The notes beneath the pieces are model-generated. The model made no database searches, was not told the DNA's origin, and worked only from the letters and a program-made list of their open reading frames with translations. A program made the translations under genes and the position numbers. Below are positions 113 through 14,550 of a stretch of 64,000 bases of DNA, in pieces. Positions within the stretch are counted from its first letter, which is position 1, and each line of letters opens with the position of its first letter. The DNA is from Escherichia phage vB_EcoM_G2469. The stretch lies in sequence record MK327934.1; one strand, 5' to 3'.

Positions 113-229
113 CAGGGATAGATAAGGACCAGTTAAAAATGTTCTCATTTAGTTTCTCTTTTAGGTTGGGCCATTCCGTGGCGCATGAATTGTCCATTTC
201 TGTATTTACCCCTCCAAGTAATTATGAAT

Positions 230-259
230 ATACTATCACAATTCTAGGAGAAAGTAAAC
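230..259 (-). promoter_or_regulatory. sigma70-type early promoter
   Basis: GTTTAC-N18-TAGTAT on minus strand. Confidence 0.4.
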
Positions 260-261
260 TG

Positions 262-564
262 TTATTTACCTTTAATTACTTTAGCTGCTTCGATAGCCGC
301 TTGCTGAAGGTCATCCATAGACATACCGAATTTAGAAGCAAAGTTATCAATTTTCTTTTCGACAGCATTCAAAGGCTTGGCCTGTTTACCTTCATTAGCG
401 CCAGGAAGAGCGAGAATACGCTCTTTGTCAATATAAAGGCTTACAAGTTTCTTACGGTCTTTATCGGACAAATCATGAAATGAATGGGCCTTTTTATTTA
501 TAGCGGCTTCTAATTTACCTGCACTCACTCGCGCTTCAGTAATAAATTCTTGATATGTTTTCAT
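262..564 (-). CDS. CTS-bearing internal (capsid-packaged) protein, IPII-like by size and position
   Basis: 100 aa ORF; N-terminus MKTYQEFITEA matches the T4 capsid targeting sequence MKTYQEFIAE; lies beside denV and e. Confidence 0.7.
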   Translation of the reverse strand: MKTYQEFITEARVSAGKLEAAINKKAHSFHDLSDKDRKKLVSLYIDKERILALPGANEGKQAKPLNAVEKKIDNFASKFGMSMDDLQQAAIEAAKVIKGK

Positions 565-1514: not shown

Positions 1515-1928
1515 TTAGTAAATTGATTTACCATAGTATTTGTACCAAGTCGGACGTTGAGCAATTTTTTCATCTAAGCGTGCTTGACTTATCGCAATGG
1601 ACGCTTCAGACGGGACGTAATTATTACGAAATTCTATAGGAATGTCGGAAATATCCTGGACAGTCGTGTCCTTGATTTTGAAACCACGTTTCAAACATTC
1701 GGCTATTAGCTCGATTTGACGTAAACGTAAAAATTCGAGTTTGTCGTAAAAGAATGTTACGTGACCTGTGCCTAAGATAAATGTTGGAGAGATTTTAAAA
1801 TCCTTTACACGTTTACCGTTTTGAACATGTTTACGGACTGCACCAAATACGCGTGGTAATTCACGATACTCAGCCATAAGATGTTGGTCGGTCAGTTCAG
1901 AAACAAGTGTTAAATTGATACGGGTCAT
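1515..1928 (-). CDS. denV: endonuclease V (pyrimidine-dimer DNA glycosylase/AP lyase)
   Basis: [12 protein letters not shown]...[10 protein letters not shown] matches T4 DenV along its length; ATG taken at 1928 (track ORF starts 4 codons earlier). Confidence 0.93.
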
Positions 1929-1964
1929 AATTTCCTCCAAGTAGTTGATGAATGTATAGTATCA

Positions 1965-1994
1965 AAGTCCTTGGAGGAAGTAAACACTATTTTT
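1965..1994 (-). promoter_or_regulatory. sigma70-type early promoter for denV
   Basis: GTTTAC-N18-TACTAT on minus strand, flanked by a 10-bp inverted repeat TTCCTCCAAG/CTTGGAGGAA. Confidence 0.45.
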
Positions 1995-2787: not shown

Positions 2788-3246
2788 TTATAGGAGGGTA
2801 GTGAGCACCTTATATAATGATTTGCCCATTACATATTCCCATTGAGAAGGTTTAATTAAAGCGAATGCATCAAATTCAGGAATCTGTCGTCCGTCTGGGA
2901 ATGTATGATAGGAATTACAAACACTGTTTCTGAATTGCTCGTGCTCTACAGGGATGGTATATTGGAACAGATGAATATTCTTATTGTCTGAGTAATGATG
3001 TTCACCTAGGTCTTTCAGGAAGGCAGGGTCATATTGTGTAAACCCAGTTTCTTCTTCGCATTCACGAATAGCGGCTTCAATAGGAGATTCGCCAGGTTCG
3101 ACACGGCCTTTAGGAATATCCCACCGATGAGCTAAAGAACCTTTAGGACGAGAACCAGTTACACGGCCCATGAATAATTCTTTATCTTCGGTAAGGAAAA
3201 TAATACCAGCTGATAGTTCTTTCACTTTATTTTTCTTACTCATCAT
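2788..3246 (-). CDS. nudE: Nudix hydrolase
   Basis: Nudix box GRVEPGESPIEAAIRECEEETGF; position directly downstream of e as in T4 (e.1). Confidence 0.85.
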   Translation of the reverse strand: MMSKKNKVKELSAGIIFLTEDKELFMGRVTGSRPKGSLAHRWDIPKGRVEPGESPIEAAIRECEEETGFTQYDPAFLKDLGEHHYSDNKNIHLFQYTIPVEHEQFRNSVCNSYHTFPDGRQIPEFDAFALIKPSQWEYVMGKSLYKVLTTLL

Positions 3247-4636: not shown

Positions 4637-4942
4637 TTATTTTCCTCGACATTCTTTAATGAAATTTTCTAGATTGGTAGATTCAATAGCTTTTTTACGA
4701 GCTTCTGCGTGTTCTTCTTCTGACAATTTACATTTATAATTGACCCAGACATTATGGTCGAAACTAGTCGTGGCATATAATAACAAAGCTCCGACGAATA
4801 ATAAAAACGGTGATAAGAATACAAAACCAGGAACACCATCCATACTGTAAGCCTTTTGTAATACTGCAACAGAAAGAGTTGCGTAAAAAAGTGATGCAAA
4901 TATTGTTAAAAGACCAATTCGGTTGGTTTCGCCTAATTTCAT
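4637..4942 (-). CDS. hypothetical membrane protein
   Basis: 101 aa, two hydrophobic helices; GGAG SD; leader plus ATG identical over 24 bp to that of the 9377..9682 gene. Confidence 0.6.
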   Translation of the reverse strand: MKLGETNRIGLLTIFASLFYATLSVAVLQKAYSMDGVPGFVFLSPFLLFVGALLLYATTSFDHNVWVNYKCKLSEEEHAEARKKAIESTNLENFIKECRGK

Positions 4943-4962
4943 AATATTCTCCTCATGTTTTG
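4939..4962. repeat. 24-bp exact repeat, copy 1 (leader, SD and ATG)
   Basis: TCATAATATTCTCCTCATGTTTTG identical to 9679..9702. Confidence 0.85.
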
Positions 4963-4970
4963 GTAGGACT

Positions 4971-4999
4971 ACTATAACATAGTCCTATAATTGTGTAAA
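4971..4999 (-). promoter_or_regulatory. sigma70-type early promoter (cassette)
   Basis: TTTACA-N17-TATAGT with TGn extended -10; lies in the repeated TAGGACTACTATAACATAGTCCTA motif. Confidence 0.5.
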
Positions 5000-5012
5000 C
5001 AGTTTTGCGAAA

Positions 5013-5969
5013 TTATTTGAAAGGTTTTACCATATGGAAATTTTGTTTGAAACGTTTGACGTAATCGTCATGTCCTAAGCTTTGGTACATACTTACTACT
5101 TTGCTGTAGTTTTCCCAGGCGTATTCACGGAACCAACCGGAGGTGATGCTTGTGCAGACTTTTTCTAATGCCATCATGAAACTGGCTTCAGGGTTAATTT
5201 TAAAGTCATTAGGAATCTGAGAACGTTCTAATGCTAGTACACATGATTCTTCATATACACCGGCCAATTTGACCATTTCTGGTAACGATTCGAACTTCTC
5301 GCGTGAGGTCATGACTTCAGAACCGTCTTTCATATAAAATGTATAAGCCGGACGGTCTGTTAGTGCAATGGCTTCATGAATAGTATCATGGTCATATGTA
5401 TAGATGTCATCTTTAAAGAACGCACTTTTAGAAGTGTCAAGAACCGGGTGAGCATAGTTCAAGGTTTCTTTCTGGCGTTTCAGCATAATTTCAGTAAGTT
5501 CATCGTTCAGTGTAACACCTTTACCACGAAGATACTGAATATGGTTCATAGTCTTTAAAAAGAATGGATTATTTTTCTTGAAACGATGAGACATCTTAAT
5601 TGCAAGGCACATCTCAGGAGTTGCCCAGTAAAACCCGTTCAAACGGTCTTTAGTCAAATTTTTCTTGGCGTATTTTAAAAGGTCATAAGAAGACGTGAAA
5701 TCTTCAGGAGTGAGTTCACCAACTAATTCACGGACATTAGTGATTGCCGGAACAATATATGCTTCAAAATGAGTTTCGCGTCCATTATGGAAGCATTTGA
5801 AAACTTGGACATCAGGGTTATCTTGGTGAACATATACACCCATCATTTGATTTTTGAATGCATTCCAAGAACATTGGTCCGCAATAAAGTCCCAATCACT
5901 ATTTTTGATAGCGCTAGAATCAATAAGACCGTGATAGTGAAGTGCACGAGAACCAATAACCAACATCAT
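5013..5969 (-). CDS. hypothetical protein with possible nucleotidyltransferase-like GS...DxD motif
   Basis: 318 aa; N-terminal VIGSRALHYHGLIDSSAIKNSDWDFIAD; GAGGAAAA SD; function is inferred only. Confidence 0.65.
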   Translation of the reverse strand: MMLVIGSRALHYHGLIDSSAIKNSDWDFIADQCSWNAFKNQMMGVYVHQDNPDVQVFKCFHNGRETHFEAYIVPAITNVRELVGELTPEDFTSSYDLLKYAKKNLTKDRLNGFYWATPEMCLAIKMSHRFKKNNPFFLKTMNHIQYLRGKGVTLNDELTEIMLKRQKETLNYAHPVLDTSKSAFFKDDIYTYDHDTIHEAIALTDRPAYTFYMKDGSEVMTSREKFESLPEMVKLAGVYEESCVLALERSQIPNDFKINPEASFMMALEKVCTSITSGWFREYAWENYSKVVSMYQSLGHDDYVKRFKQNFHMVKPFK

Positions 5970-5997
5970 AATATTTTCCTCGGATTAATTCATTAAC

Positions 5998-6249
5998 TTA
6001 AATTTCACGACATGCGATATTATATTCATCCCAGAGGTCATCATGTGAAGCCTCTACCAAAGGAACGATTGTACCGTTTATGTCTTCATTATAAGGGCAA
6101 ATTGTACAGTGCGCATCTTCGAATCGGATGCCTTTGTGTTCAGATTTTTTATAACGCATATCGAATATCTTTGCAAACTTTTCACGAGTAATGGTTTTAC
6201 CAACCACTTTGGTTCCGATACTTTCGTAATAAATCATTGTGGACTCCAT
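5998..6249 (-). CDS. small hypothetical protein, Cys/His-containing
   Basis: 83 aa; early promoter at 6266..6294. Confidence 0.55.
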   Translation of the reverse strand: MESTMIYYESIGTKVVGKTITREKFAKIFDMRYKKSEHKGIRFEDAHCTICPYNEDINGTIVPLVEASHDDLWDEYNIACREI

Positions 6250-6265
6250 TTGTTTTGATAGGACT

Positions 6266-6294
6266 ACTATAACATAGCCCTATCTTGTTGTAAA
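6266..6294 (-). promoter_or_regulatory. sigma70-type early promoter (cassette)
   Basis: TTTACA-N17-TATAGT, same repeated motif. Confidence 0.5.
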
Positions 6295-6299
6295 CTGTT

Positions 6300-6497
6300 T
6301 TAGCAAGAATAACTAGATGATACCCAGCCTTGAACAGTGATACTATTGTGGGATAATGAGATCGCGTCCTGGAGATTCAGACCTGCGTTATCTTCAATCC
6401 ATAATGTAACTTCTTCGCGTTCTTCTGTTGCAATTTGGAACAGGTTTTCCAGGGCAGCTACTGCCGTACGTACAGCACAATCTAATTCACGAGACAT
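6300..6497 (-). CDS. small hypothetical protein, C-terminal WVSSSYSC tail (paralog 1 of 3)
   Basis: 65 aa; AAGGAA SD; conserved C-terminal tail shared with the next two ORFs. Confidence 0.55.
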   Translation of the reverse strand: MSRELDCAVRTAVAALENLFQIATEEREEVTLWIEDNAGLNLQDAISLSHNSITVQGWVSSSYSC

Positions 6498-6506
6498 ATG
6501 ATTTCC

Positions 6507-6779
6507 TTAACAAGTGTGAGAAGATGCAACCCAACCGCCATCTTCAAGGCTCAGGTTGTAGTCGTATTGGTAAACGTCGGCCCATTCAGCATAGCCGTTT
6601 TTTGTACAACGTTCAAGATCGGCTTTAAGATGTCCGGGTGAATGATAGGTTCCACCCATACCATAAGCTGGGTACAAGTCGAATGTTGTGTTTTGTTTAT
6701 CAGCAATTTCTTTGGCAGCCTCAATAGCTGCATAGATTTTTGCTACAGCTTCAGCCAGTTCGGTTTGTTCTTTAGACAT
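6507..6779 (-). CDS. small hypothetical protein, C-terminal WVASSHTC tail (paralog 2 of 3)
   Basis: 90 aa; AAGGAA SD. Confidence 0.6.
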   Translation of the reverse strand: MSKEQTELAEAVAKIYAAIEAAKEIADKQNTTFDLYPAYGMGGTYHSPGHLKADLERCTKNGYAEWADVYQYDYNLSLEDGGWVASSHTC

Positions 6780-6788
6780 AATGATTCC

Positions 6789-7094
6789 TTAGCACAACGC
6801 TGAAGACGAAACCCAAGCACCTTCAGTAATAACGTAACCATTACCTTCACGCTTAACATCGCCACCATTATTTTCAATTTCATTTTTCATCCACTGGGAT
6901 ACGATTTCACCCTTAGGATAATAAGTACGACCGCTACCATAATCACCTACAGAAAATGATACGGCATATTGGTCTGCGATCTTTGTTGCTTCTTCTTCAA
7001 TACGTTCAGCTTGATTCAGAAGTTTATAAATTGCATCTGAAGCGGATTTGGCATCATTAAACTCTGGTACTTTAATTTCAATAATCTTACTCAT
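6789..7094 (-). CDS. small hypothetical protein, C-terminal WVSSSALC tail (paralog 3 of 3)
   Basis: 101 aa; AAGGAA SD; promoter GTTTAC-N17-TATAAT at 7155..7183. Confidence 0.6.
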   Translation of the reverse strand: MSKIIEIKVPEFNDAKSASDAIYKLLNQAERIEEEATKIADQYAVSFSVGDYGSGRTYYPKGEIVSQWMKNEIENNGGDVKREGNGYVITEGAWVSSSALC

Positions 7095-7154
7095 TTTCTA
7101 CATTCCTTAATAAAGTTTTCTATTGTTTCATTTTCACGTCTAGCTAGGAGTTCA

Positions 7155-7183
7155 TTATAACTAATCATTTGAGAAGCGTAAAC
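7155..7183 (-). promoter_or_regulatory. sigma70-type early promoter
   Basis: GTTTAC-N17-TATAAT on minus strand. Confidence 0.5.
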
Positions 7184-7192
7184 AGCATAAAT

Positions 7193-7585
7193 TCAGTTCA
7201 GGCTTTTGCATCTTATTTCCTTAACGAATTCCATAGCTTCTTCATATTCATACTTTTTAACAGCTTCATCATACTGAGCTTTGGCTTTCGCGCACTGAAC
7301 TTTCCATTCACGAACTCGAGCTCTGTGATGACGGCCTTGGTACCAATATCCCACCAAGTTAATAGGCATTAATAAAAATGGCACAATAAACGACCCGGCT
7401 ATAATAAGTAAAAACACTGCATCAGACGATATAACTTCACTAGAATCTAAAACAGCTCCTATAATCATAAAGATTAAAAATGCTAAAGCTAAAATAGGGC
7501 CAAATAGTACTTCATTTGGGATTAATTTACGCTTGTATTCGTATGCCCAGGGCTTAATTGGCATGTACAGGGTTGGCTTTGACAT
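7193..7585 (-). CDS. hypothetical membrane protein
   Basis: Two hydrophobic helices; track start at 7615 is a TTG; in-frame ATGs at 7585 and 7564, so the start is uncertain. Confidence 0.5.
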   Translation of the reverse strand: MSKPTLYMPIKPWAYEYKRKLIPNEVLFGPILALAFLIFMIIGAVLDSSEVISSDAVFLLIIAGSFIVPFLLMPINLVGYWYQGRHHRARVREWKVQCAKAKAQYDEAVKKYEYEEAMEFVKEIRCKSLN

Positions 7586-8156
7586 ATTCTCTACATTCCA
7601 TAATAAATTGCTCAAGGATTAAATTGTTAGTGAAATTAGGACTAACAACCATAGTTTCATAAAGCGCATCAATAGCACTTAAAGCATCAACTCTTTTAAG
7701 CAAAGGCTTGCCTTCATACATAGTTTCAGAATCGATGATTAACGTAAAGTAATATTTTTTATTATCGACTAGAACTTCCGTATCGATATAAAACATATTA
7801 GACCTCAGAAGCTTATCTCTAAAACCATAATAATCTTCAGAGCGTTCGCTGATATATTCCCATTCAGTGTTTAAACAACAAACAGACCATGTAGGAGCAA
7901 CGAAATCAGTGAATCTAATATCATGGTCTGCAACTAGTTTAGCAATAGCTCCGATATCATGAATCATAATACCTGGGGCTAATAAAGATTTTCTGCTATG
8001 GCTAGCCGTTTTCTCAGTAGTCTCATAAGAAGACGACCAGTACCATTTACGTCCAGTTGCAACATATCGTAATGAATCAACTAAAGACGTAGGTGGATTT
8101 ACCTTATTTCGGAACTCTTCGAACATTGAGTCAATATCATTATTTTGGTTTCGCAT
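7554..8156 (-). CDS. hypothetical protein (about 200 aa)
   Basis: Track start at 8177 is TTG; the ATG at 8156 is preceded by AAAGGAG SD. Confidence 0.6.
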   Translation of the reverse strand: MRNQNNDIDSMFEEFRNKVNPPTSLVDSLRYVATGRKWYWSSSYETTEKTASHSRKSLLAPGIMIHDIGAIAKLVADHDIRFTDFVAPTWSVCCLNTEWEYISERSEDYYGFRDKLLRSNMFYIDTEVLVDNKKYYFTLIIDSETMYEGKPLLKRVDALSAIDALYETMVVSPNFTNNLILEQFIMECREYVKANPVHAN

Positions 8157-8180
8157 GTTAACTCCTTTATTATCCAAAAG

Positions 8181-8198
8181 GAGGACCGGAGTCCTCCG
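8181..8198 (-). terminator. stem-loop / terminator
   Basis: GGAGGACUCCGGUCCUCC followed by UUUUGG on minus strand, then SD and ATG of the next gene. Confidence 0.5.
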
Positions 8199-8205
8199 TA
8201 TTATT

Positions 8206-8799
8206 TTATTTCAAAGAGTTAATATATTCTTGTACATCAGCAGAAGTGGTTTCGACGCCAGCTGGAGTGCCATTGAACGTTTCAACACGAGTCAGAGTGT
8301 CTTCGATATCAACCTTAGTCAGTGCAGCGATTTCAATTACATCATCAGCCGTAGAGATACCAAGGGCATTGGCTGCTCGAGTTTCACGAATGTATTCGAG
8401 TTTGATTGCCAGATTCTGACGAGCATCATCAAGTTCAACCACCTTACGAGCAATTTCAATTCGCATAGCGGCGTACCCGTCAGCTTTTGTATTAAGTTGT
8501 TCGGCAGTTCGACGATACAGAAGACCAAGCTTAGCATGCATAGTAACATCTTGTCCTTCGGCCAGGAGCTTACGAATTTCACGTTCCTTAGAAGCGGCTT
8601 GCTTGTTCTTTTCATTAACAAGTTCGCGAATACGTTTTTCTTCATTAATAGATTTAACAGAAGCCGTTTTTAGTTCTTTGATTTGGGTAATCAACTTATC
8701 TGCAGCTGCGTTATACTGTTCTTCGACAGTCAGATTTTTAGCCATAGCAGTACCCAGTTTAGTGCGGATGAATTCAACAAGTTTCTTCAGTGTGTTCAT
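8206..8799 (-). CDS. coiled-coil protein, possibly PspA/IM30-like
   Basis: 197 aa, heptad-rich and K/E-rich; ATG at 8799 (track start 8814 is TTG); family assignment is a guess. Confidence 0.55.
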
Positions 8800-8869
8800 A
8801 TTATTACCTTTCAATTGGTGGTTTATTATCCAACGAGAGCATTATACTCTGCTCTCAAGAGTTTGTAAA

Positions 8870-9097
8870 TTATTTTTTAATCAAATTGACATAAAACTTG
8901 GCGTCTTCGGGGTGCATGCCTTCGCAGTATTCTTCAACCATGAACTTCTTAATAGCTTCATAAGGACCACTCAGATTAAGCTCAGTTGTCCAGAACTTGG
9001 AATCTTGGGCTGAATCGATACGAACTTCAGGGTGACGGTTGCGAATAACTTCTTCGGTGTATTCATAATCAACGACATCAATACTAACTGTAGCCAT
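8870..9097 (-). CDS. small hypothetical protein
   Basis: 75 aa ORF with early promoter at 9126..9154. Confidence 0.5.
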   Translation of the reverse strand: MATVSIDVVDYEYTEEVIRNRHPEVRIDSAQDSKFWTTELNLSGPYEAIKKFMVEEYCEGMHPEDAKFYVNLIKK

Positions 9098-9125
9098 TTT
9101 GTTTTCCTCTTGATTTGATAGGACT

Positions 9126-9154
9126 ACTATAACATAAACTTACTTAGATGTAAA
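9126..9154 (-). promoter_or_regulatory. sigma70-type early promoter (cassette)
   Basis: TTTACA-N17-TATAGT. Confidence 0.45.
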
Positions 9155-9308
9155 TTATTTCAACGTCACCTTTAGCTGCTTTATAACCTTCAGCCCAAGA
9201 TACAACAGAGTTTTTATCTGAGGATTCAAATTCAGGCATTGGACTTTCACCAATATTCACACAGTATGTTTCTTCATTTTCATCGAACCAAATAATTAAA
9301 GTAGTCAT
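9144..9308 (-). CDS. small hypothetical protein (54 aa), absent from the ORF track
   Basis: MTTLIIWFDENEETYCVNIGESPMPEFESSDKNSVVSWAEGYKAAKGDVEIIYI; its start and promoter region lie in a 47-bp exact repeat shared with the gene at 45236..45505. Confidence 0.45.
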   Translation of the reverse strand: MTTLIIWFDENEETYCVNIGESPMPEFESSDKNSVVSWAEGYKAAKGDVEIIYI

Positions 9309-9348
9309 TTTGTTTACTCCTCTGTAGTTGATAAGTCTATAGTATCAC
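9302..9348. repeat. 47-bp exact direct repeat, copy 1 (promoter -10, leader and ATG module)
   Basis: Identical to 45499..45545 by manual alignment. Confidence 0.85.
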
Positions 9349-9376
9349 CATCCTTGGTGCTTGTACATCATTATTT

Positions 9377-9682
9377 TTAATTTTTCCAACTTAACAACTT
9401 GTAGTGTCCTTCATTCATACGTGGTTTATCCCAAGAAATACTAATATATGATTCGCTGTCAATAGAAGTCGCCGGGTTTTTCTCTACCGTAAGACCTTCA
9501 CTTTCCAGCCATTCAATAGTATTTGCGCATAAATCAGAAGAACACCTAATCGGAAACCGGCAAGATTTTTCACCTTTAGCTGCAGTGTTATACATCTTTT
9601 CTAAAATACGCTTTTGCACGTTTTTAAAAATAGTTTCAGCAGATTCTTCAGATTTTTTATTCAGTTCAGTGTAAAGACTCAT
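9377..9682 (-). CDS. small hypothetical protein
   Basis: 101 aa; GGAG SD; early promoter at 9711..9739. Confidence 0.55.
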   Translation of the reverse strand: MSLYTELNKKSEESAETIFKNVQKRILEKMYNTAAKGEKSCRFPIRCSSDLCANTIEWLESEGLTVEKNPATSIDSESYISISWDKPRMNEGHYKLLSWKN

Positions 9683-9702
9683 AATATTCTCCTCATGTTT
9701 TG
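9679..9702. repeat. 24-bp exact repeat, copy 2
   Basis: Identical to 4939..4962. Confidence 0.85.
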
Positions 9703-9710
9703 ATAGGTCT

Positions 9711-9739
9711 ATAGTAACACATCTAGGGAAGAAGTAAAC
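9711..9739 (-). promoter_or_regulatory. sigma70-type early promoter
   Basis: GTTTAC-N17-TACTAT. Confidence 0.45.
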
Positions 9740-9767
9740 AACTTTTTCAGTAAGTTATAGACCCCCT

Positions 9768-9783
9768 AAAGGGGACCGAAGTC
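9768..9783 (-). terminator. stem-loop of a stem-loop/promoter cassette
   Basis: GGGGACUUCGGUCCCC followed by UUUAGGG; sits between a gene end and the next early promoter. Confidence 0.4.
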
Positions 9784-9791
9784 CCCATTCT

Positions 9792-10418
9792 TTACTTACG
9801 AGTTTTTGCATACTGAGCAGCGTCAGCAGCCAAACGACCTGCCTGACGAAGTTTTTCTTTAATCGCATCGTGAAGTGGTTGAGTGTACTTCAAACCTTCG
9901 ATAGTCAAATAAAGACGATAAAGGTCCGGGGTATCAAGGTTGTTGATATGTTGGCCATTACGAAGAATATTGAATTCACGAACGAGTGAAGATGTATCGG
10001 ATTCAATATCACGAACAAGCGAAGATAGTTGTTTATATTTTTTTTCCAGACTAGAAGTATCAAACTTAAGAGCAGGAGCTTTAGGAGTTGCTTTTACTTC
10101 AGGCTTAGGCTCAGGTTTTGCTATTGCTTTAGGGGTCGCAGGTTTAGGAATGGAAGGAGTAGGTTTTACTTTAGGCGAACCCGATTTAGCAGAAACACCA
10201 CCACTAACAATATCTTTGAATGCTTTAGAAGCTCTGTAATATTCTTTTTGGCTGGAAGTGTCGATACCGTACATGGCTTGAACGTTTTTGAAAAACTCTG
10301 TACTAGTTTTTGTACCAGAAATAGCATCGTAAGCAGCTTGCCATTTCTCTTTTGTCATACGTACACCGGCTTCGGTGATTACTTCCGTTTCGGCTAAAAA
10401 TTCATTAAAAGTATACAT
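9792..10418 (-). CDS. CTS-bearing internal protein with Pro/Lys-rich linker (novel member)
   Basis: 208 aa; N-terminus MYTFNEFLAETE (CTS-like); PKVKPTPSIPKPATPKAIAKPEPKPEVKATPKAP linker; TATAAATA late-promoter motif 36 nt upstream. Confidence 0.65.
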   Translation of the reverse strand: MYTFNEFLAETEVITEAGVRMTKEKWQAAYDAISGTKTSTEFFKNVQAMYGIDTSSQKEYYRASKAFKDIVSGGVSAKSGSPKVKPTPSIPKPATPKAIAKPEPKPEVKATPKAPALKFDTSSLEKKYKQLSSLVRDIESDTSSLVREFNILRNGQHINNLDTPDLYRLYLTIEGLKYTQPLHDAIKEKLRQAGRLAADAAQYAKTRK

Positions 10419-10453
10419 CGATGGTCCTTAGAAAGTAGGTTTATTGTTTACTA

Positions 10454-10461
10454 TATTTATA
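10454..10461 (-). promoter_or_regulatory. T4-type late promoter (TATAAATA)
   Basis: Exact TATAAATA on minus strand, 36 nt before the ATG at 10418. Confidence 0.6.
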
Positions 10462-10465
10462 CAAA

Positions 10466-10488
10466 AAAGCCCCAACCTTTCGGAAGGG
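10466..10488 (-). terminator. rho-independent terminator
   Basis: Minus-strand RNA AGCCCCUUCCGAAAGGUUGGGGCU followed by UUUUUU. Confidence 0.75.
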
Positions 10489-10495
10489 GCTATAT

Positions 10496-10793
10496 ACCTT
10501 GTCGGGGTTCCACCTGCTAAGGCAAGTGTTTGTACGAAACGCCGGGATTCGAACCCGGTTATTAAGTAGTTGACGCTACTCAATATTTTTAAAAGGCCAT
10601 ATCTCGACCATATCCGAACGTTCCGTCAAAAACGCTACTCGGCTTACGGCAAAGATATTTCCTCGAATCGATAATTCGGTGCGCCGTTTCTGCTGTGATA
10701 TAAGGGGGCATTAACAAAACATAAAGATTTATTAATGCCAGTCCTTACTCAGGGAACATCAGTCCGACGACTTACCGGTAGCGACCCGGCTTC
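10496..10793 (-). other. non-coding region with tRNA-like 3' half (possible stable RNA or tRNA remnant)
   Basis: Perfect T arm CCGGG-UUCGAAU-CCCGG plus acceptor 3' strand at 10535..10558, but no canonical D or anticodon arms fold; 8-bp palindrome GGCATTAA...TTAATGCC at 10708..10740. Confidence 0.35.
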
Positions 10794-11138
10794 TTATTTT
10801 GGCATATCATCAATTTGCTCTCGACGCCGACGCCATAGATTAATCGCTTCATAAACACATTCTGCGTTTGGTATATGACGGCAATAATATAATGATTCGC
10901 GTTTCTGGAATCGATGTTGCAATGGGATTTCGTTTAAAAGGTCTTTACGGTCAAAGTATTCAAAACTAGTTAACCTGGAACGGTTTTTAATGAACTTCCA
11001 ATGACCAAATTCATTTTGAACATAGATGTAATCTGCATGTTGGTATAACAAATTAATCAATCGGTCTGAAATAACTGTATCATGTTCGTTAAAATAAAAC
11101 GTTAAATCATGAACTACTAAGTAAACATTACCTTTCAT
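10794..11138 (-). CDS. hypothetical protein (114 aa)
   Basis: ATG at 11138 with GAGGAAAA SD; the longer track ORF would overlap the tRNA. Confidence 0.55.
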   Translation of the reverse strand: MKGNVYLVVHDLTFYFNEHDTVISDRLINLLYQHADYIYVQNEFGHWKFIKNRSRLTSFEYFDRKDLLNEIPLQHRFQKRESLYYCRHIPNAECVYEAINLWRRRREQIDDMPK

Positions 11139-11156
11139 ATTTTCCTCACTTAAAAT

Positions 11157-11233
<77 letters not shown>

Positions 11234-11333
11234 ATGATGCGGCTTTGGGTGTTTCAGTGTTACTCGTTTGTAGGTTCTACTTTTAACCCTTATTCGAACA
11301 ACTTACCTACCTAAGAGCGTACTCACCGCGAAT

Positions 11334-11408
11334 TGGTGGCCCTGGCTGGTTTCGATCCAGCTACCTATCAGTTATGAGCTGACAGCTCTCCCATTGAGCT
11401 ACAGGGCC
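11334..11408 (-). tRNA. tRNA with CAU anticodon (Met, or Ile if C34 is lysidine-modified)
   Basis: Acceptor GGCCCUG/CAGGGCC perfect, D arm GCUC-AAUGGGA-GAGC, anticodon loop CUCAUAA, T stem GCUGG/CCAGC with unusual loop AUCGAAA, encoded CCA. Confidence 0.7.
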
Positions 11409-11470
11409 TAAATAACTTTCTATTATGAAAGGCACTTGAGGGAGCACCTTTGGTAATAGAGGGTAGATTA

Positions 11471-11495
11471 ATAATAACACATAATTCTTAAAGCA
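11471..11495 (-). promoter_or_regulatory. candidate MotA-dependent middle promoter upstream of the tRNA genes
   Basis: Minus strand reads TTTGCTTTA, 12-nt spacer, TATTAT; about 55 nt upstream of the tRNA-CAU 5' end. Confidence 0.3.
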
Positions 11496-11504
11496 AATTA
11501 CGTT

Positions 11505-11795
11505 TTACCGTACCATATTAATGTAGTTATATTCAATGCAACGTAATTTCAAAGGGTTCTTGAAAATATCATATTCAAGAGGGCCTTTTTCTGTTTCAAT
11601 AAAGAAATCAAAGTTAACTGTGTTAAATTTAACGTCTTCACAGAGTAATTTAACTTGTGAAGATGAACGGTCGATATAAACCTTTTCAACCTCAAAGATA
11701 GTCAGAATACCGTAGTCATTAACCAGTGCTTTAGCTGCACGTTGGTCGCTTTCATATCCGTTCTCAATGGACGATACTTTAGCATAAAGAATCAT
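11505..11795 (-). CDS. small hypothetical protein
   Basis: 96 aa ORF in the early region. Confidence 0.5.
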   Translation of the reverse strand: MILYAKVSSIENGYESDQRAAKALVNDYGILTIFEVEKVYIDRSSSQVKLLCEDVKFNTVNFDFFIETEKGPLEYDIFKNPLKLRCIEYNYINMVR

Positions 11796-12154
11796 GAATG
11801 TTCCACCATTTCAAAGGTATGAGCATCAACAATATGATACCAGTCAAAATTTTCTTCCGCGTTTTTATAAATTTCGCGAAGAGCTTCAACAGTTTTTCCT
11901 GTAGCAACAAGATCGTCAATACCACCAAGAGGATAACAGTAATAACCAGCAAACAGAAGGAAATTAATAGTTTCTGTAGGTTCTGGATGCAGAACACCGT
12001 TATCATCTACCACTTCAAAGAAAGTGTAAGAAGGAGTACAAGTTTTAATCCAAACCCATGCTTGGGCTGCTGAATCAAATGGTCTGCGTATCAAACGACA
12101 ATCAGGGTCTTTAGAAGGATTTGCGTCAAAATCTGCATATACATGATATTTCAT
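11792..12154 (-). CDS. hypothetical protein
   Basis: 120 aa ORF, 4-nt overlap with the downstream gene. Confidence 0.55.
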   Translation of the reverse strand: MKYHVYADFDANPSKDPDCRLIRRPFDSAAQAWVWIKTCTPSYTFFEVVDDNGVLHPEPTETINFLLFAGYYCYPLGGIDDLVATGKTVEALREIYKNAEENFDWYHIVDAHTFEMVEHS

Positions 12155-12361
12155 TTACTCACCTTTTGCAATTTTATCCATAACGATAGCGATTAAGCCG
12201 ATTAGAAATGCTACTACCAATGAGATAGAATTTTCTGTTGTTGTCAGTAGTCCACAAATGAATCCTACAAACATCGAAAAACTAAAAGCCATTGAAGCAA
12301 TTACTACAGCAACATTACGAATCAGTTCAGCGCGTTTCATTTTATTTCTCCATTTACTCAT
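12155..12361 (-). CDS. small hypothetical membrane protein
   Basis: 68 aa, hydrophobic (AVVIASMAFSFSMFVGFICGLL, LVVAFLIGLIAIV); early promoter cassette upstream. Confidence 0.5.
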   Translation of the reverse strand: MSKWRNKMKRAELIRNVAVVIASMAFSFSMFVGFICGLLTTTENSISLVVAFLIGLIAIVMDKIAKGE

Positions 12362-12409
12362 TTGTTTTGATAGGACTACTATAACATATCCCTATAGGCT
12401 TGTATACCT

Positions 12410-12673
12410 TTATTTCAAATATATTGCGTATTTTTTATAGCCACCAGGCTCGTGTCGAAGACCTTTATCATTCGCAAAACGTTGAATGTTATTGAACTGA
12501 TTTTCATCAAGTTCGGATGTGTCAAATACGAAAAAGTTTCGTTTGTTACCAAGCGTGATATGCGGAGTTAAGTCAATGTTATACAAATTAAGAATATCAG
12601 CAATAACCTGATTGACCGCTTTGTTAATTTTCACACCAGATGATTCTGAGATGAATTCGTTGAAAGTTTTCAT
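12410..12673 (-). CDS. CTS-bearing small internal protein (novel member)
   Basis: Internal ATG gives MKTFNEFISES; early promoter TTTACA-N17-TATAGT at 12706..12734. Confidence 0.55.
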   Translation of the reverse strand: MKTFNEFISESSGVKINKAVNQVIADILNLYNIDLTPHITLGNKRNFFVFDTSELDENQFNNIQRFANDKGLRHEPGGYKKYAIYLK

Positions 12674-12690
12674 TTTAGGTTCCATTTGGT

Positions 12691-12723
12691 TGTTTTGATA
12701 GGACTACTATAACATAGTCCTAT
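12691..12723. repeat. recurrent about 33-bp promoter motif TGTTTTGATAGGACTACTATAACATAGTCCTAT
   Basis: Near-identical copies at 4956..4988, 6251..6283, 12363..12395 and a partial at 9113..9136; internal 8-bp inverted repeat ATAGGACT/AGTCCTAT. Confidence 0.8.
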
Positions 12724-12734
12724 CGTGTTGTAAA
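12706..12734 (-). promoter_or_regulatory. sigma70-type early promoter (cassette)
   Basis: TTTACA-N17-TATAGT upstream of CTS ORF 12410..12673. Confidence 0.5.
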
Positions 12735-13046
12735 TTATTTTATGCCTTTAGAAGAAATGGTATTTTGGCGTTTAACCCCTGTTTGTGAAAAATCGTGGTT
12801 ATCGATTTGGTCGACTCGCATAACACCAAATGCAGATTTAATTTTAGCCTTTGAACCTTTTTTGATACTAATTATCATATAAGTATCATTTTTCTTATAT
12901 TCGAAATTTGTTACTTCAACGCCTTGATTAGAAATTGACTTAATAATAGCATTAGCGTATTCATCATCTAACGGACCGGTGGTGTTAATAATAAAATTTT
13001 TATCGGCTTTAGTAGCTTCAGCGATAAACTCTTGATAAGTTTTCAT
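12735..13046 (-). CDS. CTS-bearing small internal protein (ipI-position member)
   Basis: 103 aa; N-terminus MKTYQEFIAEA is an exact CTS; next to the 57B-like gene; promoter at 13084..13112. Confidence 0.65.
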   Translation of the reverse strand: MKTYQEFIAEATKADKNFIINTTGPLDDEYANAIIKSISNQGVEVTNFEYKKNDTYMIISIKKGSKAKIKSAFGVMRVDQIDNHDFSQTGVKRQNTISSKGIK

Positions 13047-13083
13047 TTGTTTTTTCCGTTTGGTTTGTGATTTGATATGATGA

Positions 13084-13112
13084 TAGTATCACACCATCAT
13101 CCTTATGTAAAC
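13084..13112 (-). promoter_or_regulatory. sigma70-type early promoter
   Basis: GTTTAC-N17-TACTAT upstream of CTS ORF 12735..13046. Confidence 0.5.
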
Positions 13113-13815: not shown

Positions 13816-14550
13816 TTACCTTAAGATTGTTTCAATTTTAGAATAAAGCTCTTCTAAAGAGCCGTCGTTTGTAATAACTAAATCGCCTTCTTCAATAGGC
13901 AACCCAGCTTCTGTAATATGTTTATCAGTGGATTCCGTACCAGAGCGAACAACATGAATAACTGTAGCACCCATCGCTCTAGCGGTTTCCATTTCATGGA
14001 CTTGACGTGTATCGGTTACAACATAGTAATCGAAATCACTTCCAATATAATCCATATAGTTTAATGCAAAAAGCTTAACCCAATACATACGGTCAAATAA
14101 ATTAACGACAACATCCGTACCGAGGGCTTGCATAAGACGGCGGATTGACCATGTGTCGTTGATATTATTTATAGCTTCACGCAGGGCTTCATATGGTTTA
14201 ATATCTAGATACGAATATCCACCTTCTAACGATGATAATACTTTAACATTATTAATTGGTAAATATTGACTTTGCAAATAAATTAGCGCTTCTTCCAATA
14301 ATTCAATAACATCCAACTTATTGATATTTAATGGCGTTTCACGGTCATATCCGATACCTTCAAAGTATTCGTATTTCAACTCTGTGAATACATCAGGATT
14401 TTCAGCATGCCTACGTCCCCAGGCTATTGCTAGAGCGTCTTTAATTGGATATGCTAATTGGTATTTTACGGATTTAAAGTTTGAATTGATGTAATCAGCA
14501 GTAGTGTCTTTACCACTACGTTTGATGCCACTTAAAAAGATTAGCTCCAT
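13816..14550 (-). CDS. 1: deoxynucleoside monophosphate kinase
   Basis: MELIFLSGIKRSGKDTTADYI P-loop N-terminus, T4 gp1-like throughout. Confidence 0.92.
   Translation of the reverse strand: MELIFLSGIKRSGKDTTADYINSNFKSVKYQLAYPIKDALAIAWGRRHAENPDVFTELKYEYFEGIGYDRETPLNINKLDVIELLEEALIYLQSQYLPINNVKVLSSLEGGYSYLDIKPYEALREAINNINDTWSIRRLMQALGTDVVVNLFDRMYWVKLFALNYMDYIGSDFDYYVVTDTRQVHEMETARAMGATVIHVVRSGTESTDKHITEAGLPIEEGDLVITNDGSLEELYSKIETILR

Follow-up and report, generated by a model that had tools for sequence, protein, structure and literature searches.

Repeated early promoters in the hyperplastic region of an RB69-like phage carry an inverted repeat around the -10 box that may fold in read-through RNA

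The 64,000-nucleotide stretch of Escherichia phage vB_EcoM_G2469 analyzed here (sequence record MK327934.1; this whole stretch is called the window) contains a 33-bp sequence, TGTTTTGATAGGACTACTATAACATAGTCCTAT, which recurs in the neighborhood of denV, e, the e.x open reading frames (ORFs), two transfer RNA (tRNA) genes, the genes of internal head proteins (IPs), and 57B. This neighborhood is a classical hyperplastic region; its identity to Mosigvirus genomes (RB69-like T-even phages) amounts to 96-99%, with vB_Eco_F27 (F27) matching best. On the plus strand, the sequence was found at 4956-4988 (one mismatch), 6251-6283 (one), 12363-12395 (two), and 12691-12723 (none), the number of matches with up to two mismatches expected by chance being zero (100 dinucleotide shuffles). 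A fifth copy, at 9111-9143, differs from it at five positions; its inverted repeat (described below) is missing the upstream arm. The conserved unit exceeds 33 bp and spans about 44 bp, from a -35 box to +9. Judged by its architecture, it forms, from -35 to about +9, the core shared by a set of paralogous early promoters of the T4 type in the hyperplastic IP/tRNA/e region of a Mosigvirus. The five copies, together with the parts of the best-preserved one, are as follows.

12691..12734, minus strand: promoter copy A, with a perfect dyad; predicted to drive the internal-head-protein gene 12410-12673 (annotated so in F27)
12734-12729, minus strand: copy A, -35 box TTTACA
12724-12716, minus strand: copy A, 5' arm GATAGGACT
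12711-12706, minus strand: copy A, TGn plus -10 box TATAGT
12705-12697, minus strand: copy A, 3' arm AGTCCTATC, with the putative +1 at A 12699
12363..12406, minus strand: promoter copy B, with -35 box TATACA and 5' arm ATAGGGAT, 6/8 pairs; predicted to drive a small ORF ending at 12155 (tRNA.4-like)
6251..6294, minus strand: promoter copy with 5' arm GATAGGGCT and one G.U pair; predicted to drive ORF 5998-6249; RB69 orthologue Pe:69254
4956..4999, minus strand: promoter copy with 3' arm AGTCCTAC, the outermost pair being A.C; predicted to drive ORF 4637-4942; RB69 orthologue Pe:67959
9111..9154, minus strand: promoter copy without the dyad and with an unrelated spacer, TCTAAGTAAGTTT, family-like from -16 to +9; predicted to drive ORF 8870-9097 (frd.3-like); RB69 Pe:72354

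When read on the minus strand, each of the five copies presents TTTACA (TATACA at 12363), 17 nucleotides, and TATAGT, with TG at -15/-14, and the -10 box is followed by AGTCCTATCAAAACA, by a Shine-Dalgarno (SD) sequence, and by the start codon ATG with which a small minus-strand ORF opens. Of the inverted repeat that brackets the -10 box (ATAGGACT/AGTCCTAT, 8 bp), only copy 12691 has a perfect version. The repeat contains one G.T pair at 6251 and one A.C pair at 4956, has lost two pairs at 12363 (one of them being G.T), and is absent at 9111, which means that it is intact or nearly intact in three of the five copies. The earlier note on this DNA had described at least five copies ahead of small minus-strand genes, a sigma70-like TTTACA-N17-TATAGT with an extended -10 box, and an 8-bp dyad around that box. 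The promoter elements are indeed present in all five copies, with the one -35 variant given above, while the copy number amounts to four with at most two mismatches and a fifth with five; the bracketing dyad stands at 12691 and nearly so at 6251 and 4956, but is weak at 12363 and missing at 9111. The view that the dyad is something extra to sigma-70 recognition was, in our judgment, right.

The architecture of the five copies, i.e., a GTTTAC-like -35 box, a 17-bp spacer, TGn, and TAnnnT, is that of a T4-type early promoter, and A-rich, UP-like AAAACAG or AAATAA is found upstream of the -35 box. RB69 has orthologues of all five copies with the same motif (Pe:67959, 69254, 72354, 76459, and 76812), and these sites are among the 58 early promoters predicted, though not mapped as 5' ends, in that phage (Nolan 2006, PMC1524935, Additional file 3). 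Both the architecture and the presence of the orthologues on a published list of predictions bear out the earlier identification of the repeat as an early promoter. RB69 early promoters prefer C at -3 to -1 (Nolan 2006, PMC1524935), and this preference corresponds to the CC of the 3' arm here; the terms "dyad," "palindrom," and "inverted repeat" do not occur in that paper. Since the last base of its 51-nucleotide promoter windows is the A in ATCAAAACA, this base (12699 in copy A) was taken as +1. A generic sigma-70 consensus scan told little about the window as a whole, giving 58 promoter-like sites where 47 were expected, and the copies of the motif ranked at the top of its minus-strand sites with TG. 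A search of Rfam returned the two tRNAs only and no family for the motif.

In RNA, the stem is longer than the 8-bp dyad, comprising 11 bp (GAUAGGACUAU/GUAGUCCUAUC) closed by a 6-nucleotide loop, GUUAUA. The minimum free energy (MFE) was -16.9 kcal/mol for copy 12691 (z = -5.3), -16.1 kcal/mol for copy 6251 (z = -3.5), and -14.0 kcal/mol for copy 4956 (z = -2.3); copy 12363 gave -9.1 kcal/mol, which was not significant (z = -0.55), and copy 9111 formed no hairpin. When folding was started at the putative +1, with the start site taken from the consensus, the promoters' own transcripts had an MFE of 0 to -2 kcal/mol, whereas read-through RNA reached -13 to -17 kcal/mol. As the putative start of the promoter falls on the 3' edge of its 3' arm, its own mRNA would be unstructured and the 11-bp hairpin would be confined to RNA that reads through from upstream. 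The stem ends at +3, i.e., 10-20 nucleotides before the SD sequence in the five copies; the sequence next to it is CAAAACAA on the sense strand and, on the opposite strand, CGTGTTGTAAA. In single-stranded DNA, the corresponding hairpins have an 8-nucleotide loop and energies of only -7.6 and -7.9 kcal/mol per strand, and this weakness makes cruciform extrusion unattractive.

Inverted repeats in the same register, though with unrelated arms, are found at further early promoters of the window (ATGATG/CATCAT at 13088 and GAGAGC/GCTCTC at 8846), and a second design was found as well, in which the 5' arm lies directly after the -35 box and is paired with the ribosome-binding site (the anti-SD form). 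These sibling promoters are listed below.

13068..13111, minus strand: sibling early promoter, -10 box TACTAT bracketed by ATGATG/CATCAT; predicted to drive the IP-like gene 12735-13046; -11.4 kcal/mol, z = -2.1
8835..8869, minus strand: sibling early promoter TTTACA-N17-TATAAT, dyad GAGAGC/GCTCTC in the same register; read-through RNA -14.4 kcal/mol, own transcript -2.2 kcal/mol; RB69 Pe:72069
1926..1984, minus strand: sibling promoter of the anti-SD form, spacer CUUCCUCCAAG paired with CUUGGAGGAAA of the denV ribosome-binding site; read-through RNA -17.8 kcal/mol, own transcript 0.0 kcal/mol; RB69 Pe:64934
195..268, minus strand: sibling promoter of the anti-SD form, GTTTAC-TTTCTCCTAG...TTGGAGGGG; -20.3 kcal/mol, z = -4.1; left border of a variable gene cassette

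Elsewhere in the F27 genome, promoters carry the arm pairs GGTAGGACT/AGTCCTACC, GATAGGGTT/AGCCCTATC, GGTGGAGTT/AACTCTACC, and TTGGTACAGGT/ACCTGTACCAA, and about nine of its promoters, located upstream of small hypothetical or internal-protein genes, have arms of the ATAGGRYT type. In T4, the ipI promoter has GATGAGGTA/TACCTCATC, and two others have AGTTGACAAGATT/AATCTTGTCAACT and AGCTGACAAGACT/AGTCTTGTCGGTT, the latter with two G.U pairs. The geometry is the same in nearly all such promoters: the 3' arm takes up directly where the -10 hexamer ends, and four bases separate this hexamer from the end of the 5' arm. The anti-SD form is likewise present in F27, with two pairs of 14 bp each (TTCTCCTCTAGTTG/CAACTAGAGGAGAA and TTCTCCAGTAGTTG/CAACTACTGGAGAA), and in T4, at the promoters of regB, of the denV/ipII region, and of the ndd.4 region. 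Some promoters contain an inverted repeat that lies wholly inside the spacer, namely, CACCAAGGATGGTG in the window (9344-9368) and, in T4, CCACAAGGATGTGG and the perfect palindrome CATAAAGCTTTATG (T4 positions of such repeats: 2434, 50949, 55360, and 146851), an arrangement that matches another published subclass of the promoter early stem-loops discussed below.

Pairing between the spacer and the downstream sequence was then evaluated on early promoters gathered from the whole genome of the closest relative, F27, and from T4, to which a pattern scan of IMG/VR added further loci, giving 239 unique promoters of the T-even type. In F27 (n = 41), the RNA duplex energy of spacer and downstream sequence was -9.9 kcal/mol for cognate and -7.0 kcal/mol for non-cognate pairs (permutation p<=5e-5). 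Promoter sets that had been defined ignoring spacer and discriminator gave the same picture, with -9.4 versus -6.8 kcal/mol in F27 (n = 37, p<=5e-5) and -11.95 versus -7.2 kcal/mol in T4 (n = 28, p<=5e-5). At least six of nine Watson-Crick pairs in the exact register were present in 38 of the 239 promoters, compared with 14.6 expected upon partner shuffling, and the covariation score of a random 150 of the 239 was 0.228 versus 0.166, a value reached by none of 500 shuffles and maximal at zero slide. For the anti-SD form, duplexes of -15 kcal/mol or stronger between spacer and SD region occurred in 7.3% of cognate and 0.4% of permuted pairs. Complementarity of the spacer to downstream sequence is statistically pervasive in T-even early promoters, and it takes two forms, one bracketing the -10 box and the other anti-SD. 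Another register, in which spacer positions 3-9 would pair with the last two bases of the -10 box plus five nucleotides, was only marginal over all promoters, with slide controls scoring higher, and was clear in a single subfamily (GGGTTAT/ATAACCC and GGTCTAT/ATAGACC). The earlier note had let its reading of the dyad hang on co-variation of the arms in related phages, and the arms do co-vary, as seen in F27, in T4, and in the tests on 239 promoters. Judged from the diversity of the arms, across which it is complementarity that is conserved, the dyad is selected for pairing rather than for sequence.

The window was also compared with F27, 348Ecol098PP, and p000v, the last of which lacks the following cassette.

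12407..12690, minus strand: internal-head-protein gene cassette between copies A and B; absent from p000v

In place of the window's copy A, IP gene (12410-12673), and copy B, p000v carries a lone chimeric promoter, with an upstream flank and a 5' arm like those of copy A and a leader and a gene like those of copy B, the crossover having taken place inside a 26-nucleotide stretch that is identical in the two copies. This chimeric promoter identifies the conserved cassette as a recombination junction, and the IP gene junction is carried by about 16-19 phage records only. A second variable cassette, 268-1155 (IP-like gene), is bordered by a promoter at about 262 and by a promoter plus leader codons at 1152-1243. 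The earlier note had suggested that the dyad might be a recombination site; the part of this idea that survives is that the whole promoter cassette is a crossover point for gene gain and loss, as in p000v, but nothing indicates that the dyad is a site-specific target. The 26-nucleotide junction stretch is equally consistent with homologous recombination, and no search for a recombinase was made.

The same comparison provided several side observations. F27 is about 250 bp longer than the window at 7154-7195 (F27 stretch 8384-8635), and the junction of this indel lies at the -35 box of a promoter-like GTTTACG-N17-TATAAT (RB69 Pe:70143), which makes it another indel bordered by an early promoter. 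Indels unconnected with promoters exist as well, an example being denV: the gene is intact in the window (1515-1940), while about 300 bp of it are missing in F27 (about 3109-3121), with a junction at a repeated CCCGT that is not promoter-linked. In 348Ecol098PP, at about 13830-13860 (the orthologue of window 12697-12724), the loop between the arms reads ACTATATCAT, which is the reverse complement (9/10) of the window loop ATGTTATAGT, and the flanks are collinear, as in a small inversion between inverted repeats; the promoter with the inverted loop still has a TATCAT -10 box at 17-bp spacing. The loop-inverted motif had no match in IMG/VR, compared with 10 loci for the normal form, and it is carried by one phage record only; either a rare real event or an error of assembly may lie behind it. 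A note in the T4 record (NC_000866, 133300-133313) describes these 14 bases as the "inverted complement" of the sequence reported before, which corrects the early promoter Pe133295. They coincide exactly with the loop, TTGTGATATTATAG, that the arms GGTAGAG/CTCTACC enclose, a loop flip of the same kind as in 348Ecol098PP.

The element resembles the promoter early stem-loops (PeSLs), which were defined in RB49/phi1, where the stem-loop was read as a terminator or attenuator of upstream transcription on the basis of one lacZ-fusion example and the whole PeSL as a linker through which modules are shuffled and mini-circles excised (Arbiol 2010, PMC2839356), and which were later extended to T4/PST and KVP40/nt-1 (Comeau 2014, PMC4122927). 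As in PeSLs, a strong early promoter takes up a short intergenic stretch that begins at the stop codon upstream and extends to the next SD/ATG; a stem-loop is embedded in it, as in the PeSL subclass whose stem-loop overlaps the -10 box, G-T pairs included; many copies (five in the window) lie in hyperplastic regions upstream of small hypothetical or internal-protein genes; and they are located at the edges of stretches in which close relatives differ by an insertion, deletion, or replacement of genes, with the junction inside the element in one case (p000v). The published PeSLs differ in that they come from RB49/phi1, T4/PST, and KVP40/nt-1, RB69-type phages not being among them, in that the RB49 stems are G/C tracts, whereas the stem here is A+T-rich with a ATAGGACT core, and in that the authors drew the stems of T4/PST upstream of the promoter. 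By its embedded stem-loop, its many copies in hyperplastic regions, and its place at the borders of gene indels, the element is a PeSL of the RB69 type. Two G+C-rich hairpins of the window, 8180-8197 (GGAGGAC...GTCCTCC) and 9771-9786 (GGGGAC...GTCCCC, then TTT), resemble the GGGG/CCCC stems of RB49 PeSLs, and the second is situated just upstream of an early promoter, at 9716, that has no embedded stem.

Two further systems offer parallels. Analogous, A+T-richer PeSL-like elements occur at T-even IP loci, according to the summary of Repoila 1994 given in Arbiol 2010 (PMC2839356), and, as far as this summary goes, the likeness extends to the IP gene that is present or absent as a cassette between copies A and B; three promoters here precede genes starting with MKT(F/Y).EF, the internal-protein leader. 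In the T4 genes e, soc, 49, and I-TevI, a promoter, in this case a late one, is enclosed by a hairpin that keeps the ribosome-binding site hidden (Uzan and Miller 2010, PMC3014915). Here too the 5' arm lies upstream of the proximal start, and only read-through RNA would fold, and the siblings at 1926-1984 and 195-268 would hide the SD sequence as well. The five copies themselves fall outside this T4 group, because their stem excludes the ribosome-binding site and their promoter is early, not late.

These findings led us to propose that the repeats are probably early promoters read by the host sigma-70, with an embedded hairpin that forms in read-through RNA only and with a cassette that serves as a recombination linker. 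The RNA polymerase of the host, carrying sigma-70, would read these promoters right after infection. The 5' arm occupies that part of the spacer which is free (-25 to -17), TGn and the -10 box form the loop, and the discriminator with the putative start (-6 to +3) is the 3' arm. The hairpin would be an intercistronic RNA element by which read-through transcripts are both marked and insulated, be it through attenuation, through the blocking of 3' exonucleases, or through both. In the siblings, the anti-SD arm would hide the ribosome-binding site in read-through RNA only. At the level of DNA, about 45-70 bp of near-identical promoter sequence would act as a portable linker for homologous recombination of the phage, through which small cassettes could be inserted, deleted, and exchanged. 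We prefer to place the hairpin in RNA because the anti-SD siblings make sense only there and because the DNA hairpins are weak.

Several points weigh against this proposal. Promoter activity, the start site, and the role of the hairpin are inferred. The dyad is weak or missing in two of the five copies (12363 and 9111) and about half of the early promoters overall have none; promoter function therefore does not depend on the stem. Translational masking is inapplicable to the five copies, since their ribosome-binding site lies outside the stem, and the hairpin is not a canonical intrinsic terminator, since no U-tract follows it. The statistics from shuffling are inflated, because the large sample includes many paralogues or orthologues. 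The excess of G.U over A.C pairs on the sense strand (18 versus 8) did not differ from a null fraction of 0.63 that is driven by composition (p=0.31), nor did the duplex energies of sense and antisense strands differ significantly (p=0.16), and an RNA-only reading is therefore not forced. By eye, helices with at least seven of nine pairs contained about 15 G.U and two A.C pairs, which is suggestive only, as they come from related paralogues. Finally, only one clean chimeric junction was found, the one resolved to the nucleotide.

A narrower version of the same proposal, in which the stem-loop is specifically a terminator or attenuator of upstream transcription as put forward for PeSLs, appears possible but doubtful. 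A stem-loop of an RB49 PeSL cut lacZ expression as much as rrnB T1 did (Arbiol 2010, PMC2839356), the hairpin here follows immediately on the stop codon with which the gene upstream ends, and the promoter at 9716, devoid of an embedded stem, has a separate G+C-rich terminator hairpin (9771-9786) upstream of it. However, the stem is A+U-rich and is followed by CAAAACAA instead of a U-tract, and a consensus scan of the window for terminators did not pick it up.

It is unlikely that the dyad acts in DNA, either as a hairpin or cruciform that puts TGn and the -10 box into a single-stranded loop and so aids opening by sigma-70, or as a target of structure-specific recombination (e.g., by endonuclease VII). 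The stem does close, in most cases, exactly around TGn and the -10 box, the sense-strand G.U bias is not significant, and the 10-bp loop inversion in 348Ecol098PP and the "inverted complement" remark on T4 Pe133295 show that the arms can interact in DNA. Yet placement around the -10 box is also expected if only spacer and discriminator can vary, the hairpins are weak against the duplex that they would replace, and many equally strong consensus promoters have no dyad; moreover, the same position of the spacer pairs in the siblings with an SD region 20-40 nucleotides downstream, which is sensible only in RNA.

Quite unlikely, too, is a dyad with no function of its own, that is, a quasi-palindromic promoter spread by duplication or gene conversion whose arms are kept matched by templated mutation. 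Templated mutation at quasi-palindromes is established in T4, over about 44 bp, few differences separate the four best copies, the cassette recombines, changes of the arms within the family are few, and two copies have decayed dyads. Against it speak the unrelated arms in the same register at unrelated promoters of the window (8846 and 13088), of F27, and of T4, and the excess over partner-shuffled controls, which ranged from 2.6-fold to 10-fold. As to the dimeric regulator suggested in the earlier note, an operator for a phage DNA-binding protein that would regulate a subset of early promoters, for instance in their shut-off, is highly improbable even though that shut-off is unexplained in T4 and about nine F27 promoters share ATAGGRYT arms, because the arms within one genome are unrelated in sequence (ATAGGACT, ATGATG, GAGAGC, GGTGGAGTT, and TTGGTACAGGT) and keep nothing but their complementarity in the same register, which points to a nucleic-acid stem and not to protein half-sites, because changes within the family are compensatory or wobble rather than symmetric (GGTAGGACT/AGTCCTACC and GATAGGGTT/AGCCCTATC), and because the half-sites would be separated by a -10 box that is itself fixed by sigma-70.

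Apart from the promoters, the window contains two tRNA genes on the minus strand, tRNA-Arg(TCT) and tRNA-Met/Ile2(CAT) (ARAGORN and Rfam; 11157-11233 and 11334-11408), as in the records of RB69 and 348Ecol098PP. The F27 record lists both on the plus strand with shifted coordinates, which is probably an annotation error. Downstream of tRNA-Arg, the minus strand has an ORF-free stretch (10500-10790) with a T-arm-like ACCGGGTTCGAATCCCGGC and, near 10455-10480, a good terminator at its end. T4 carries its small stable RNAs C and D at this place; for the stretch here, Rfam gave no match.

The RB69-type example joins the PeSL class and the promoter-flanked IP cassettes, and it may aid the annotation of coliphages of the therapeutic type and the understanding of accessory-gene swapping among them. 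The pervasive complementarity suggests a testable rule, namely, that the fate of an mRNA depends on the promoter from which it originates, and this bears on early shut-off, the mechanism of which is still unexplained for T4 early promoters (Hinton 2010, PMC2988021; Uzan and Miller 2010, PMC3014915). We tentatively extend this thought to T-even early promoters at large, those of T4 included, which could systematically be built as RNA switches that sense their origin, with a free spacer complementary to their own discriminator, leader, or SD sequence; the RNA of a gene would be open when transcribed from its own promoter and folded in read-through, where it would be masked, attenuated, or degraded differently. 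If this were true, the switch design would explain part of the extra conservation in T4 early promoters that is so far unexplained, and the rapid shut-off of early protein synthesis would have a post-transcriptional part, with the genes, after silencing of the early promoters, still being read from upstream middle promoters and their RNA being folded.

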